Shown: positions 1 to 4,579 of the stretch, piece by piece
Layout of the letters: each line of letters opens with the position of its first letter
How positions within the stretch are numbered: position 1 is the stretch's first letter
From: a virus
Taxonomy: Duplodnaviria > Heunggongvirae > Uroviricota > Caudoviricetes
Length of the DNA stretch: 4,579 nucleotides
IMG/VR virus record: IMGVR_UViG_2698536450_000001
Reading direction: 5' to 3' (one strand)
Made by a program: the position numbers and the translations under genes
The notes under the pieces: generated by a model
Told to the model about the DNA's origin: nothing
Databases searched by the model: none
Seen by the model: only the letters and a program-made list of their open reading frames with translations

Positions 1-140
1 TCCCGGGCAACCTGTGATGAAGACTGATTAATCGCCGTTGTGGCCACGCGGTTAATCGTCATTGCTGAAGCCGCCGGAATGGCGTTTTTACGAACCCGGC
101 TCAGATTATCAATCGCCTGAGCAAGCCCTTTTATCGCCAT
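1..140 (-). CDS. Z: Tail completion protein Z (lambda gpZ-like), N-terminal portion only; the gene continues beyond the window start
   Basis: Minus-strand ATG at 140-138 (plus-strand cat). My translation of the reverse complement gives MAIKGLAQAIDNLSRVRKNAIPAASAMTINRVATTAINQSSSQVAR..., open to position 1. This resembles the lambda gpZ N-terminus as I recall it (MAIKGLEQAVENL...). It lies directly downstream of FII, as in the lambda late operon. Confidence 0.75.
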   Translation of the reverse strand, partial: MAIKGLAQAIDNLSRVRKNAIPAASAMTINRVATTAINQSSSQVAR

Positions 141-155
141 AATTTCACCCTGCGT

Positions 156-509
156 TTATCGTCGCCGGTTAACAGCGGGTGGTTGCCCACGGTTGAGCCA
201 GAGATAACAGCTTCCCCCGTCATCCGGAGAAACACGATCCACCCAGAACATCTCGCCGTTAATGGTCAGCGTGTCACCACGCCGCACGGCACGCACCGTA
301 TCCGTCCGCACAAATAATGACGGGCTGCTTCCTTCAATACGGACCCCGCCACCGGCAAAACCCAGCGACTCCGGATCGTCAAAAACCCCCTGAACTTCGC
401 CGCCACGTTGTGCCCCCGAGGTGAACTGCGCACAGAGCCCCATCACTTCAACAATCGTTCTGTCCACCCCGGCAAGGGCAGCATCAAAGGAATTCTCAAA
501 ATCACGCAT
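156..509 (-). CDS. FII: Head-tail joining protein FII (lambda gpFII-like), 117 aa
   Basis: ORF track 156..509 minus. Translation MRDFENSFDAALAGVDRTIV...FWVDRVSPDDGGSCYLWLNRGQPPAVNRRR closely resembles my recollection of lambda gpFII (same 117 aa length, ...GDTLTI...FWVDRVSPDDGGSC.LWL.RG.PPAVNRRR). ATG at 509-507 lies 5 nt upstream of the FI stop (minus-strand ATGCGTGA), an 8-nt gene overlap typical of translational coupling. Confidence 0.9.
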   Translation of the reverse strand: MRDFENSFDAALAGVDRTIVEVMGLCAQFTSGAQRGGEVQGVFDDPESLGFAGGGVRIEGSSPSLFVRTDTVRAVRRGDTLTINGEMFWVDRVSPDDGGSCYLWLNRGQPPAVNRRR

Positions 510-870
510 AAACGGCCATTCCGCTCCTAACCATGTCTTTTGCCACTGAGGGGGGCATCAGAATTACTCTGCCAGCATCAACATGCTCAACAGGCTCACC
601 TGTTTCATCGTCAACACCGCACAGGTAAAAACACTTCAGAAGCCTGATACGTTCCAGAATACCAACGTCATCCTCACCGGTGTGCCTGCATGCCTGCTCA
701 TGAACGGTATCATCAACATCTGCGATTTCATTTTCCGAGGCGCAAACCTCCTCTTCCCACTCTGCCACACGCTGTGCGATATCCGCAGCACTCCCCGACA
801 TATCCGCCTCGCGCCCCAGCAGACCAGCCAGTTCACGAAGACGTTTCTGATTTTCTTCTTTTGTTGCCAT
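502..870 (-). CDS. FI: FI-like DNA-packaging / head assembly protein (lambda gpFI-like), about 122 aa
   Basis: Same frame as ORF 502..918, but I place the start at the internal ATG at 870-868 (MATKEENQKRLRELAGLLGRE...). This start is preceded by a GGGAG Shine-Dalgarno-like motif and lies downstream of the post-E hairpin, whereas the 918 start is a GTG inside that hairpin region. The N-terminus is lambda gpFI-like by recall, and the position between E and FII matches lambda. Confidence 0.75.
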   Translation of the reverse strand: MATKEENQKRLRELAGLLGREADMSGSAADIAQRVAEWEEEVCASENEIADVDDTVHEQACRHTGEDDVGILERIRLLKCFYLCGVDDETGEPVEHVDAGRVILMPPSVAKDMVRSGMAVYA

Positions 871-885
871 ATCCAGCTCCCTGTG

Positions 886-913
886 AAAAAAACACGGGGG
901 CATTTCGCCCCCG
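886..913 (-). terminator. Intrinsic terminator-like hairpin plus U-tract immediately downstream of the major capsid gene E
   Basis: Plus strand 895-913 is cgggggc-atttc-gcccccg: a 7-bp all-GC inverted repeat with a 5-nt loop. It is preceded on the plus strand by A7 (886-892), so on the minus strand the hairpin is followed by UGUUUUUUU. It sits 9 nt after the E stop codon (TAA at 924-922) and about 25 nt before the FI start. Confidence 0.5.
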
Positions 914-921
914 CTCACGGA

Positions 922-1950
922 TTATTTCACCTGTACCACCACAAACTCATCCGGATCCGGCAGCACCATCAGCGGCGCGGACTGCGTCATGGTGAATTCA
1001 CAGGACGGATCGCCCACGGTCAGCCAGTGTTTCGGGTAACGGGAAGAAGCCACCACTCCTTCAGACAACGCCTGTGCATCCTTAATGGCTCCATAGCAAC
1101 GAATCCCCTCTGCTGCCGTATTCCCCAGCACCAGCGTGCCCTCCGGCAGATAACGTTTTTCGGTACCGTCCTCTGCCACATAAGACGTTTTCGCTACCAC
1201 AATGGCCAGATCGCCGTAATACCCCTTGAAGGATACCACTGCGCCCAGATCTTTCACTGCCGTTTCGAGTTGTGAATTTGAACCGCGACGGGTATCCATT
1301 TTTTCGCGGAAAAGCTTAAAGCCATTCAGCAGACGCCAGACGGTACCGTCCATAATGGCAATATTCACAAGACCACTGGCCTGATCACAGAAAAGGTCGA
1401 TATCATATGTCGGGTCGAACGTGTCACGATCCTGTTTTGACCACTCCTTACCGCTACCTTGTATGATGTTATTCTTCGTCGATCGGCCAAAATCGACTTC
1501 AATTTTCTCGAACTGGTCTCCTTCCATCGTATATTTGCCATACAGCACGGCATTCACCGCCTGCATTTCTTCCACCTGCACAATAGCGTGCTCTTCCTGT
1601 TTGAGGTTATCAGTGATGATACGCAGACGACGGTAGGCCGGGTCGTTCAGCTGAGCCGGATCTTCACCGGGAAGGCGCTCAACCGCCTGCTGGTAATTAA
1701 ATTCGTGTTTCGGCTTGACGTAGCCCGGACGCAACACGCGGGTTTCACCACCACGATGGCGCAGCACTTTTCCTTCAACGATCGGGGAGACATAGGCCGC
1801 CACCGGCGTTTTTCCGGTAATTTTGTCCAGCATCACCTCTTCGGTGTGGAAATTCACCGTACGGCGGAAAAACAGCTCCAGAAATAGCGCACGGAATTTC
1901 ACTTTTTGTTCGGTATAACCGAGTAACTGGCGGGTCGTAAACAATCCCAT
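922..1950 (-). CDS. E: Major capsid protein (lambda gpE-like), 342 aa
   Basis: ORF track 922..1950 minus. The translation matches lambda gpE along its length by recall (…TTRQLLG.TEQK.KF…LFF…YVSPIV.G.V…RGG…PGYVKPKHE…DPAYRR.RII…EEMQAV.AVL.GKYTM.G…TRRGSNS.LETAVKDLG…GDPS.EFTM.QSAPLM.L.DPDEFV.VQ). ATG at 1950-1948 is preceded by an AAGGA motif. The length is close to lambda gpE (341 aa). Confidence 0.95.
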   Translation of the reverse strand: MGLFTTRQLLGYTEQKVKFRALFLELFFRRTVNFHTEEVMLDKITGKTPVAAYVSPIVEGKVLRHRGGETRVLRPGYVKPKHEFNYQQAVERLPGEDPAQLNDPAYRRLRIITDNLKQEEHAIVQVEEMQAVNAVLYGKYTMEGDQFEKIEVDFGRSTKNNIIQGSGKEWSKQDRDTFDPTYDIDLFCDQASGLVNIAIMDGTVWRLLNGFKLFREKMDTRRGSNSQLETAVKDLGAVVSFKGYYGDLAIVVAKTSYVAEDGTEKRYLPEGTLVLGNTAAEGIRCYGAIKDAQALSEGVVASSRYPKHWLTVGDPSCEFTMTQSAPLMVLPDPDEFVVVQVK

Positions 1951-1978
1951 AAATCAGTTCCTTTCATTCAGAAATCAG

Positions 1979-2000
1979 TCAGGCCACCATGGTGGCCTGA
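1979..2000. other. Perfect 22-bp palindrome (tcaggccaccatggtggcctga) in the D-E intergenic region; candidate RNA stem-loop or dyad-symmetric protein-binding site
   Basis: Read directly: 1979-2000 is its own reverse complement (9-bp arms around the central catg). It lies 8 nt after the D stop (TAA 2010-2008) and about 28 nt before the E start. On the minus strand it is not followed by a strong U-run. Confidence 0.45.
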
Positions 2001-2007
2001 TAACGTG

Positions 2008-2355
2008 TTACGGCAGAGCCGCGTGACTCAGGGCTGTGCCGGCAAAGGCATTTGCCTTTTTGTGTTCATCCACACTGTCAGGCCAGCGGATTGCCTCCGT
2101 CGCAAAGGTCCCCGACTTGTAATAGGTCAGCACCGTCTCTGTGCCTTCAAGCGGCAGTACCAGTATGCCAACCGCACTACCGGCTTTCTGTCCATCCCAG
2201 ACCACCAGTTTCCCGGTGGCTTCATCCAGCATCAGGGGCGTCAGAGCCGGTGTTGCAGAAGAAATCCCGCTGCTGCCTGTGGCGGTATGAGCCGGATCAT
2301 TACCAGCAAAAATACGTACTTCCGCACGCTGTTCAGTGATGGTTTTCGTCACCAT
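2008..2355 (-). CDS. D: Head decoration protein (lambda gpD-like), 115 aa
   Basis: ORF track 2008..2355 minus. The translation contains DPAHTAT...TPLMLD...KLV.WDG...A.VGIL...T...YKSGTF...FAGTA, which matches my recollection of lambda gpD. The size (115 aa versus 110 aa) and position between C and E are as in lambda. Confidence 0.9.
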   Translation of the reverse strand: MVTKTITEQRAEVRIFAGNDPAHTATGSSGISSATPALTPLMLDEATGKLVVWDGQKAGSAVGILVLPLEGTETVLTYYKSGTFATEAIRWPDSVDEHKKANAFAGTALSHAALP

Positions 2356-2391
2356 TTTGTTAAAACCTCATATTGATAGTCAGCACTGACT

Positions 2392-3207
2392 TCATGGCAT
2401 GGCCATGAGCATTTTCACGTCCGCATCACCGTCTGCTGACGTCTGTGACACGCCACCCCGCACCGCTGCCGGTGAATGATTCGCCATGAAATGTTCAAAC
2501 AGGGCGGTTGTGGATGCAGAGACCGGTTCGGCCTTACCTGATCCCGCAGCCAGCACAGCCCGGGCGTTCTCCACGGTCATTCCCGGGCAGGCAGCCAGTT
2601 TTTCAGCCTGCGCTTCTGCCCCTTTTGCCTCATCCAGGGCCATGATCTGATCACGAAGTGAGGGCCCGGCATCCGCCAGTGGTGCAGCCGCCAGGATCGG
2701 GCGGGCTTTTTCCACCGTCATCTCCGGCATCGCCGCCAGCGTTGCCGCCAGTTGTTCACGACCGTTCGCTTCTTCACACGCCATAATGCGATCGGCTTCA
2801 CTCTGCGCGGATGCCACCGGCTGCTGCGGTGCCGCCGCGGCCAGAATCGCCCGGGCCTGTTCAACGCTCATGCCCTGTTGCCCTGCCAGCATCGTGGCAA
2901 GCTGTTCACGTCCTTTCGCTTCCTGACACGTCAGGATCCCCATCACTCGCTGGTTCTCCTGCACTGCGGCTTCCGTTGCAGTTAATTGCGGCATAGTGCC
3001 TCCTCTGACATTACTGTTCAGCGCCGTGGCCATCACACTGATGGCATCCGACGCATTGATTAATTCATCCGCCAGCCCGGCCTCAATGCCGGACTGACCT
3101 TCAAAAACGGCGGCCTCTGTTCCCGTGACGGCATCAACAGACAGACCGGTAAACATCGCCACTTTTTCGGCAAACATCCGGCGCGCCGCATCAATGCGCT
3201 GCTGCAT
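2392..3207 (-). CDS. Nu3: Putative nested in-frame scaffolding protein (Nu3-like), translated from an internal start in the C frame; start position uncertain
   Basis: In lambda, Nu3 is the C-terminal about 200 codons of the C frame, translated from an internal start. The candidate internal ATGs here are at 3207-3205 (DMQQRIDAARR, with GAGG about 11 nt upstream), 3177-3175 and 3156-3154. The C-terminal part is Ala/Gln/Glu-rich and repetitive, as expected for a scaffold. Which start is used, if any, cannot be decided from sequence. Confidence 0.3.
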   Translation of the reverse strand: MQQRIDAARRMFAEKVAMFTGLSVDAVTGTEAAVFEGQSGIEAGLADELINASDAISVMATALNSNVRGGTMPQLTATEAAVQENQRVMGILTCQEAKGREQLATMLAGQQGMSVEQARAILAAAAPQQPVASAQSEADRIMACEEANGREQLAATLAAMPEMTVEKARPILAAAPLADAGPSLRDQIMALDEAKGAEAQAEKLAACPGMTVENARAVLAAGSGKAEPVSASTTALFEHFMANHSPAAVRGGVSQTSADGDADVKMLMAMP

Positions 3208-3897
3208 GTCCTGGCGAACCTCTGCCGGTAAGGCTTCAAACTGATTGCCATCCACCTTGTGCGTCCCTGAGTAAATCAGCGTGATATCCACACCGGCCTG
3301 CGCCAGATGACCGGCATAGCTGACATGGCTCATCATCACGCCAATGGAGCCGATACGGGATGTCTGGGTAACCAGCCGTCGGGAGCAGGCCGACGCCAGC
3401 AGCATGGCTGCAGAACAGGCCGTGTCATTGCACAGTGCCCAGACCGGCTTCTGCTGACGGAGGCGGTAAATCATGTCAGCGCAGTCAAACGCGCCGGCGG
3501 CCTGCCCGCCCGGACTGTCAATGTCCAGCAGTACGCCCCGCACCTGGCTATCCGCCATTGCCTGCTGAAGACAGGCGACAATACCGTCATAGCCTGTCAT
3601 TCCGGAAAATGGCCGCATACCCCCCAGCCGGTGCACCAGCGTGCCGGTCACCGGCAGTACAGCAATACCGTTCACCACCCTGTAAACACGGGCCGGTCGT
3701 TTACCTCCGGCCATGTACTCGTCCGTTTCAGCCAGCATTCCGGGAGCATCAAACTGTACCTGCTGTTGTGGTACCGAAAGACTTGCTGCCCCCATCTCGC
3801 GCCCGAGCGCGCAAAAGAAAACCCGCGCATAGGCGGGCTCCAGAAGCAGCGGTTCATTGAATGCTGCGGCAATAATGTGTGAAAGATTACGTCTCAC
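2392..3897 (-). CDS. C: Prohead protease / scaffold fusion protein (lambda gpC-like, S49/ClpP-fold peptidase domain with C-terminal Nu3-like scaffold domain), 501 aa, GTG start
   Basis: ORF track 2392..3897 minus. The N-terminus RRNLSHIIAAAFNEPLLLEPAYARVFFCAL matches the lambda gpC N-terminus by recall (RNLPHIASMAFNEPLMLEPAYARVFFCAL). Conserved protease-region blocks are present (NGIAVLPV.GTLV, GMTGY.GI, GAFDCAD.I, KPVWAL.ND..CSA..LLAS...RRLVTQT.R.GSIGVMM.H, ITLIYSG.HKVDGN). The start codon is GTG at 3897-3895 (plus-strand cac), preceded by AGGAGA at a 9-nt spacing; an in-frame stop lies upstream at 3936-3934. Confidence 0.9.
   Translation of the reverse strand: MRRNLSHIIAAAFNEPLLLEPAYARVFFCALGREMGAASLSVPQQQVQFDAPGMLAETDEYMAGGKRPARVYRVVNGIAVLPVTGTLVHRLGGMRPFSGMTGYDGIVACLQQAMADSQVRGVLLDIDSPGGQAAGAFDCADMIYRLRQQKPVWALCNDTACSAAMLLASACSRRLVTQTSRIGSIGVMMSHVSYAGHLAQAGVDITLIYSGTHKVDGNQFEALPAEVRQDMQQRIDAARRMFAEKVAMFTGLSVDAVTGTEAAVFEGQSGIEAGLADELINASDAISVMATALNSNVRGGTMPQLTATEAAVQENQRVMGILTCQEAKGREQLATMLAGQQGMSVEQARAILAAAAPQQPVASAQSEADRIMACEEANGREQLAATLAAMPEMTVEKARPILAAAPLADAGPSLRDQIMALDEAKGAEAQAEKLAACPGMTVENARAVLAAGSGKAEPVSASTTALFEHFMANHSPAAVRGGVSQTSADGDADVKMLMAMP
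2542..2952 (-). repeat. Three tandem in-frame copies of a ~35-50 aa motif (about 140-150 nt period) inside the C-terminal scaffold region of C/Nu3
   Basis: Protein residues about 316-452 contain ILTCQEAKGREQLATMLAGQQGMSVEQARAILAAAAP / IMACEEANGREQLAATLAAMPEMTVEKARPILAAAP / IMALDEAKGAEAQAEKLAACPGMTVENARAVLAAGSG. The repeat is visible at DNA level, for example plus strand around 2562-2590, 2700-2729 and 2851-2882 (cgggc.t.ttc.ac.gtcat..cc), and around 2610-2660, 2740-2800 and 2885-2945. Confidence 0.7.
3265..3852. repeat. Direct repeat copy 1 (inside intact C); 588 bp, about 99.5% identical to 3992..4579
   Basis: Base-by-base comparison of 3265-3852 with 3992-4579 at a constant offset of 727 bp. 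I find only 3 mismatches, in the motifs gacaatAccgtc/gacaatGccgtc, cgcatAcccccc/cgcatCcccccc and caccaccctg/caccacccgg, and no indels. Confidence 0.9.
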
Positions 3898-3906
3898 GTG
3901 GTGTTG

Positions 3907-3912
3907 TCTCCT
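3907..3912 (-). promoter_or_regulatory. Shine-Dalgarno sequence (AGGAGA) for the GTG-initiated C gene
   Basis: Minus-strand sequence ...gccggaagAGGAGAcaacaccacGTG; 9-nt spacer to the GTG at 3897-3895. Confidence 0.55.
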
Positions 3913-3966
3913 CTTCCGGCCTGCGACTCTCCGCTATCTGCTGCTGATACGCCTGCGCTATCCACA

Positions 3967-3991
3967 CCGGACGTGAGAGTCCGGCTTTTTA
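3967..3991 (+). terminator. Terminator-like hairpin plus T-tract oriented for plus-strand (antisense) transcription, inside the C-prime / C junction
   Basis: ccggac-gtgaga-gtccgg (6-bp stem, 6-nt loop) at 3967-3984, followed by cttttta (3985-3991) on the plus strand. On the minus strand it is preceded by an A-run rather than followed by a U-run, so it would act as an intrinsic terminator only on the plus strand. Confidence 0.3.
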
Positions 3992-4579
3992 CCCTGAGTA
4001 AATCAGCGTGATATCCACACCGGCCTGCGCCAGATGACCGGCATAGCTGACATGGCTCATCATCACGCCAATGGAGCCGATACGGGATGTCTGGGTAACC
4101 AGCCGTCGGGAGCAGGCCGACGCCAGCAGCATGGCTGCAGAACAGGCCGTGTCATTGCACAGTGCCCAGACCGGCTTCTGCTGACGGAGGCGGTAAATCA
4201 TGTCAGCGCAGTCAAACGCGCCGGCGGCCTGCCCGCCCGGACTGTCAATGTCCAGCAGTACGCCCCGCACCTGGCTATCCGCCATTGCCTGCTGAAGACA
4301 GGCGACAATGCCGTCATAGCCTGTCATTCCGGAAAATGGCCGCATCCCCCCCAGCCGGTGCACCAGCGTGCCGGTCACCGGCAGTACAGCAATACCGTTC
4401 ACCACCCGGTAAACACGGGCCGGTCGTTTACCTCCGGCCATGTACTCGTCCGTTTCAGCCAGCATTCCGGGAGCATCAAACTGTACCTGCTGTTGTGGTA
4501 CCGAAAGACTTGCTGCCCCCATCTCGCGCCCGAGCGCGCAAAAGAAAACCCGCGCATAGGCGGGCTCCAGAAGCAGCGG
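3989..4579 (-). pseudogene. Truncated duplicate of C (C-prime): encodes residues corresponding to about 16-211 of the protease domain, then stops at the duplication breakpoint; its N-terminus and start codon lie beyond the window end
   Basis: ORF track 3989..4522 minus has a translation identical to residues 35-211 of the intact C product, and the frame stays open to the window end. The reading frame ends ...DITLIYSG then TAA (3991-3989), whereas intact C continues THKVDGN.... The stop codon is formed by junction bases immediately outside the repeat. Confidence 0.7.
3992..4579. repeat. Direct repeat copy 2 (upstream partial copy of the C 5' region); extends to the window edge and probably beyond
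   Basis: Same alignment as for copy 1. Homology starts exactly at 3992 (ccctgagtaaatcagc...); the bases just before it (3988-3991 ttta versus 3261-3264 gcgt) differ. Confidence 0.9.

Follow-up and report, generated by a model that had tools for sequence, protein, structure and literature searches.

The stretch between positions 3898 and 3990 of the window (the whole 4,579 nucleotides of DNA that were analysed) is the ordinary 3' end of a portal gene standing directly before the head-protease gene C. At its upstream edge this portal tail meets a second, partial copy of C, here called C-prime. We infer, with a probability of roughly 0.8, that this junction is an assembly seam at which two contig ends overlapping by 726 nucleotides (3265-3990) were abutted and not merged. 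The duplication, the junction and C-prime are therefore most likely not real. The argument draws on the identity of both sides of the junction to native genes, on the reading frames that cross it, on the coincidence of the breakpoints with the ends of independent draft contigs, on the polymorphic sites that flank them and on the finished genomes searched, in which the junction does not occur.

The minus strand of the window carries a lambdoid head-gene block, as read from the list of open reading frames (Table 1), and the order and products of its genes are annotated in the same way in phage 21 and in E. coli prophages. The exact 501-residue product of C sits beside a 530-residue portal protein in many genomes. 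Prophages of E. coli O39:NM F8704-2 and of several other strains share 99.95% identity with the window from position 1 to 3990, where the match ends. The closest finished prophage (L014 of F8704-2) shows two differences only over this length, at 2378 in the D-C spacer region (A in the window, G in the prophage) and at 2593 within C (A against C).

Table 1. Features of the window, in positions counted from its first letter
Feature	Positions	Strand	Remarks
FII	156-509	minus	List of open reading frames
FI		minus	Between FII and E in the lambdoid head block; list of open reading frames
E, major capsid gene	922-1950	minus	List of open reading frames
D, decoration gene	2008-2355	minus	List of open reading frames
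C, complete head protease/scaffold gene (S49 peptidase, Nu3 nested)	2392-3897	minus	GTG start at 3897-3895; list of open reading frames and annotated relatives
726-nt stretch present twice	3265-3990	minus	Second copy would run from 3992 to about 4717; bounded by polymorphic 3264 and 3991
Native portal gene 3' end (lambda B / phage 21 gp4)	3887-3990	minus	Last 33 codons, TAA at 3889-3887 and two bases of the preceding codon
Shine-Dalgarno sequence of C, AGGAG	3908-3912	minus	In the portal coding sequence, 10 nt before GTG; annotated equivalent in OL657228
12-mer TATCCACACCGG	3959-3970; 3285-3296; 4012-4023		In the portal tail; in C; in the second copy of C
Hairpin CCGGAC-GTGAGA-GTCCGG followed by CTTTTT	3967-3990 (stem-loop 3967-3984)	plus	Sense strand encodes portal K-A-G-L-S-R-P-V
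Base at the proposed seam, A (sense T)	3991		Matches neither parent; makes TAA in the C-prime/portal frame
Second copy (C-prime), C codons 16-211	3992-4579	minus	Same as 3265-3852 except for three synonymous differences

The portal gene end and its overlap with C

The sequence at 3898-3990 is 100% identical to the portal 3' end of phage-21-like E. coli prophages at 13 of the 15 native loci compared, and the remaining two, phage 21 (L001) and L015, each differ from the window at two sites. A portal protein and an S49 peptidase are annotated at the native loci that match. The real portal frame is that of C-prime; it reads KAGLSRPVWIAQAYQQQIAESRRPEEETTPRET and then stops 11 nt within C, and in native loci the portal C-terminus in the same frame is ER(Q/E) followed by KAGLSRPVWIAQAYQQQIAESRRPEEETTPRET and the stop. 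A single translation across the junction gives ...ITLIYSG, a stop, then KAGLSRPVWIAQAYQQQIAESRRPEEETTPRET and a second stop, the part behind the first stop being the C-terminus of the RM9872 portal and differing from that of phage 21 by one substitution. Annotated portal genes of relatives likewise terminate 11 nt within C, the portal stop lying 8 nt beyond the C start and producing an 11-nt gene overlap. Alignment with phage 21 and RM9872 shows that the upstream portal continuation, (G/C)CCGCTC..., is absent from the window, where 3991/3992 marks a change to sequence from within C.

The Shine-Dalgarno sequence of C falls within the last portal codons, and its equivalent is annotated as a ribosome_binding_site of gene 5 in the phage 21 record OL657228. 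A site in this position lets ribosomes that complete the portal go on to initiate C, which is also the situation in lambda B/C. The gene order and the GTG start of C are those of the lambdoid portal-protease overlap (lambda B/C; phage 21 genes 4/5), and in both of these systems, as in the window, the Shine-Dalgarno sequence is found within the last portal codons and the portal stop downstream of the C start. The overlap measures 11 nt in the window and in phage 21, but 20 nt in lambda. The window DNA is near-identical to that of phage 21 (M81255, OL657228) and there is no substantive difference from either system; the window's portal tail is cut at 3990 by the proposed seam. The portal tail, its overlap into C and the ribosome-binding site of C inside the portal gene are real and have long been known for lambda and phage 21, so that this stretch of the window holds nothing new.

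It was proposed in the original prediction, made from the letters of the window, that 3898-3990 is a native portal 3' end directly before C, and identity in many E. coli strains and near identity in phage 21 bear this out; the stretch also carries the ribosome-binding site of C. The portal had, however, been looked for in another minus-strand frame. This frame is indeed open from a TGA at 4154-4152 to a TGA at 3896-3894 that overlaps the GTG start of C as GTGA; AGGAGA is present just upstream of C (3912-3907, 10 nt ahead of the GTG), and the frame contains no ATG, GTG or TTG upstream of the junction, with one GTG past it at 3965. As a portal frame with coupling through GTGA it is nevertheless wrong, as the portal uses the frame of C-prime and its TAA. 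The peptide LRVKSRTLTSGV..., put forward as the portal C-terminus, is an out-of-frame read, and for this reason the tblastn search proposed with it would have failed despite the correct origin of the DNA. Because both the GTGA frame and this peptide are out of frame, the portal tail is not the frame-scrambled relic that they had suggested; it stands in its native frame and equals annotated portal C-termini.

Across 107 loci, the last ~65 nt of the portal gene (3924-3990) contain no site with a minor-allele frequency of at least 5%, while the flanking sequence has one such variable site per ~15-20 nt. The invariant segment includes the 12-mer and the hairpin listed in Table 1, and the ribosome-binding site of C is just downstream of it.

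Two copies of C and the termini of draft contigs

The second copy of C follows the first head-to-tail at an offset of 727 nt and is 99.5% identical to it. The copies differ at 3583 (A/G), 3619 (A/C) and 3681 (T/G), which correspond to 4310, 4346 and 4408 in copy 2. All three differences are synonymous, leaving the amino acid sequence unchanged, and the three differing alleles are natural variants already present in other prophage lineages, including those among the 107 loci. Copy 1 matches the F8704-2 type, and prophages of other strains, for example MS15236 and N1, match copy 2 with 100% identity.

The 211-residue product of C-prime, queried on the assumption that its first 15 residues are those of C, has been recorded solely as a partial gene cut short by the end of a contig ("S49 family peptidase, partial"; 48 contigs). 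The same product, with its terminus at C codon 211, is listed in at least 83 blocks of a public assembly collection in which NCBI, ENA and Logan assemblies are shown. Among ten of these contigs that were fetched, six end at ...CTCAGGG, equivalent to 3992/3265 of the window, three end one base short of this point and one ends one base beyond it. The 33-residue portal tail, for its part, is a partial gene at the start of contigs in 310 blocks, and eight of ten fetched contigs begin at AAAAAGCC, equivalent to 3990. The junction in the window consists of exactly these two common termini with one extra base between them. Both termini adjoin sites that vary between prophages (3264, T/C; 3991, G/C), and L013 and L014, two prophages of the one F8704-2 chromosome, differ at both. 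Assemblers halt at 3990 and 3265 because the path forks at 3991 and 3264, which vary between co-resident prophages. As the breakpoint coincides to the nucleotide with common ends of draft contigs, it points to an assembly seam and not to recombination; from the ~1% difference between lineages we estimate that a real recombination would meet both termini to the nucleotide with a chance of about 1e-4 or less.

On the sense strand the junction reads ...CTCAGGG, then T, then AAAAAGCC.... The base in the middle belongs to neither parent, since the native portal gene has G or C at 3991 (47 and 60 of the 107 loci, with no A) and native C has T or C at the equivalent position 3264, of which T marks the lineage of the window and C other lineages. 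A natural nonsense allele of the portal with A at 3991 was considered and rejected, being found in 0 of 107 loci and in none of the species-representative genomes or JGI metagenomes.

The junction itself has no counterpart in the collections searched. Of 5,426 complete E. coli genomes searched with a 60-nt query centred on it, none gave a match that spans it; ~2,000 of these genomes contain the module. With a 301-nt query, the match in E. coli genomes and phages always splits into two pieces that span 729 nt of the matched record, and there was no single-piece match in phages or plasmids. Exact matches to the junction were likewise absent from species-representative genomes, IMG/VR and JGI metagenomes; the native continuation, which served as positive control, was found in at least 120 IMG/VR contigs. 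Exact look-up of the C-prime products as they are limited by the window (196 and 177 residues) returned no match.

The seam could have formed as follows. One piece (1-3990) would run from the tail-proximal head genes through C and into the last 33 portal codons, and the other (3992-4579) would be the end of a sequence coming from the terminase and portal side and running into C up to codon 211. The genome itself would have a single, normal portal-C arrangement in which these pieces overlap by 726 nt. Short-read assemblers would stop at 3990 and 3265, where the next bases differ among the near-identical prophages of such strains, and a later step, whether scaffolding, an end-to-end join or the closing of a contig with redundant ends, may have set the two ends side by side, with a single base remaining at 3991 as a placeholder or an error. 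The seam would then account, as its by-products, for the 727-nt duplication, for the truncation of C-prime and for the TAA at the end of C-prime. Certain scaffolders may mark a negative gap with one "n", and our guess is that the base at 3991 may be such a placeholder that was later converted or filled. One published scaffolder tests only 300-400 nt of contig ends and, where the test fails, has as its default to place overlapping contigs one after the other (PMC4177539).

An artefact of the class proposed here is present in the same genes of a JGI metagenome scaffold (L037; 3300000357, EM177_1065662), which has 10-N spacers at 458-467, 1749-1758 and 2241-2250. There, contig ends with overlaps of 182, 87 and 300 nt have been abutted with the spacers between them, giving rise to a false C of 563 residues. 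Like the window, an abutted-overlap scaffolding artefact displays a false tandem duplication whose length is that of the overlap and whose boundaries are contig termini from multi-copy, near-identical sequence. The window departs from this pattern in having one called base at the seam, and not a run of N or nothing at all.

Two observations sit less comfortably with a seam. If the co-resident prophages differ at 3583, 3619 and 3681, the contigs passed these forks and yet stopped at 3264 and 3991, for which there is no evident reason. A seam likewise fails to explain why the 12-mer lies so near both termini, a placement with a probability of ~3e-4 by chance. The case nevertheless carries a caution, as the abutting of overlapping contig ends from near-identical prophages can generate a false duplication (here of 727 nt), a truncated protease gene and a stop codon. 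Such seams can be recognised without reads by comparing the breakpoints with the places where independent draft contigs stop and with the sites that vary between prophages of one genome.

Recombination as a less likely origin of the junction

Two head-to-tail copies with 99.5% identity are what might be left by a real tandem duplication within a single prophage, the copies of which later diverged by point mutation. The three synonymous differences, however, all match alleles common in other lineages, which random mutation would not achieve, and copy 2 has identical counterparts in prophages of other strains; this rules out a duplication whose copies then diverged by random mutation. The objection drawn from the contig termini holds here too, and we regard a single-prophage origin as very improbable. 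A genuine in-vivo event of another kind deserves more weight, although it is still unlikely: two co-resident phage-21-like prophages, or a phage and a prophage, may have been joined out of register through 2-3 nt of microhomology (CC/CCC), with one base changed or untemplated and a 727-nt partial duplication as the result. The product would comprise a complete portal gene, C-prime cut at codon 211 by the TAA made at the junction, a 93-nt portal tail with the ribosome-binding site of C, and an intact C. The junction does look like illegitimate end joining, with CC(C) common to both parents and one non-parental base, and its two copies come from two lineages, as an exchange between prophages would give. 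The window sequence is moreover contiguous with its bases called, De Bruijn assemblers need supporting k-mers to create a join of this kind, and an independent rearrangement is present close by in the finished genome of E. coli B-JRPT-4119. Set against this, both breakpoints are to the nucleotide the commonest contig termini and lie beside sites that vary between prophages, the junction occurs in none of the 5,426 finished genomes, and between prophages of 99% identity homologous exchange in register should vastly outnumber an out-of-register join. Such a join, if true, would be a minor curiosity.

The original prediction had offered a duplication mediated by the 12-bp direct repeats, together with a frame-scrambled portal relic overlapping C at GTGA and a functional antisense terminator, and this combination we consider scarcely credible. 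The three positions given for TATCCACACCGG hold, the breakpoint at 3991/3992 does lie inside the 41-nt spacer 3971-4011, and the 12-mer flanks the junction on both sides in a placement that is unlikely by chance: among 400,000 random junctions, a copy within 45 nt of each breakpoint occurred at a rate of ~3e-4. A crossover between the repeats would nevertheless leave one hybrid copy and a period of 674 nt, whereas the window retains both copies with a period of 727 nt; the 12-mer is not at the junction but 20-21 nt away on either side. The duplication and deletion junctions that the 12-mer predicts were found nowhere in the 5,426 genomes at a coverage of at least 80% of the query. The portal tail stands in its native frame and not in that of GTGA, and the hairpin, while its stem and T5 fit the terminator consensus, is no stabler than shuffled sequences, has no promoter-like site in the window to go with it and is not conserved.

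Short-homology illegitimate recombination makes use, for example, of homologies of 9-13 bp at the junctions of tandem duplications or of lambda-bio phages. The window resembles these cases in the 12-nt identity between the regions that are joined; it differs from them in the position of the join, which in short-homology recombination falls inside the homology and leaves one copy of it. Template switching or annealing by way of the 12-mer or the hairpin was also considered, and was rejected because no model that could be constructed puts the join 20-21 nt outside both repeats. The 12-mer is native to both the portal gene and C in all phage-21-like loci examined, and site 3292, within the copy in C, is polymorphic in ~16% of the 107 loci. 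Exact direct repeats of at least 12 nt are ordinary here, with nineteen repeated 12-mers in ~13 separate pairs over 10 kb of native sequence. We treat the proximity of the 12-mer to both termini as an unexplained coincidence, and as neither a seam nor recombination accounts for it, it does not discriminate between the two.

The 12-mer has a further neighbour in the 7-mer CCTGCGC, which directly precedes it in the portal tail (3952-3958) and directly follows it in C (3297-3303) and in the second copy (4024-4030). The two native sites thus resemble circular permutations of one 19-mer, which is probably a coincidence.

In the B-JRPT-4119 genome (NZ_CP106756.1; L020, 2990-3020), FI, E, D and C are deleted and the equivalent of window position 510 is joined to 3959. 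The start of FII (…ATCACGCAT) runs directly into the portal tail at ATCCACACCGG…, with 2 nt of microhomology. The breakpoint on the portal side, 3959/3960, is the left edge of the 12-mer and lies 32 nt from the window seam, on the opposite side of the hairpin. This independent deletion gives a hint that the ~30-nt stretch 3959-3991 might be a hot spot for illegitimate joining; that it is one, and that the junction is at the same time a real out-of-register prophage join with a truncated protease, seems to us quite doubtful.

The antisense hairpin

A plus-strand hairpin followed by a run of T is present at 3967-3990, as had been described, and consists of six pairs, five of them G-C, around a 6-nt loop, with CTTTTT behind the stem. 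In these respects (6-bp GC-rich stem, 6-nt loop, CTTTTT) it is like an intrinsic, Rho-independent terminator. It differs from one in being inside a coding region and antisense to the operon, in its ordinary stability and in its loss from relatives. The minimum free energy is -11.6 kcal/mol with z = -0.87, and 36 of 200 shuffled sequences fold at least as well. The window contains 14 terminator-like matches, nine of which, this hairpin among them, are on the plus strand and hence antisense; promoter-like sites were found on neither strand of the window, and Rfam gave no matches anywhere in it. Gifsy-1 keeps the stem and encodes the same amino acids with the T run absent, and lambda and phi80 have neither stem nor T run. 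The reading as an antisense terminator is not supported, given this combination of ordinary stability, no promoter-like site found in the window, the T run lost in Gifsy-1 and a motif absent from lambda and phi80. Judged from sequence, nothing supports a terminator function, and the hairpin and the 12-mer are native coding sequence with no demonstrated role.

The best terminator-like matches of the window lie elsewhere, in the sense direction, where strong GC-rich hairpins with T runs occur on the minus strand at 894-914, in the space between E and FI, and at 1979-2000, in the space between D and E. Since both are internal to the late operon, they would not be expected to terminate transcription fully; the hairpin at 1979-2000 is a perfect 11+11 palindrome, TCAGGCCACCA/TGGTGGCCTGA.
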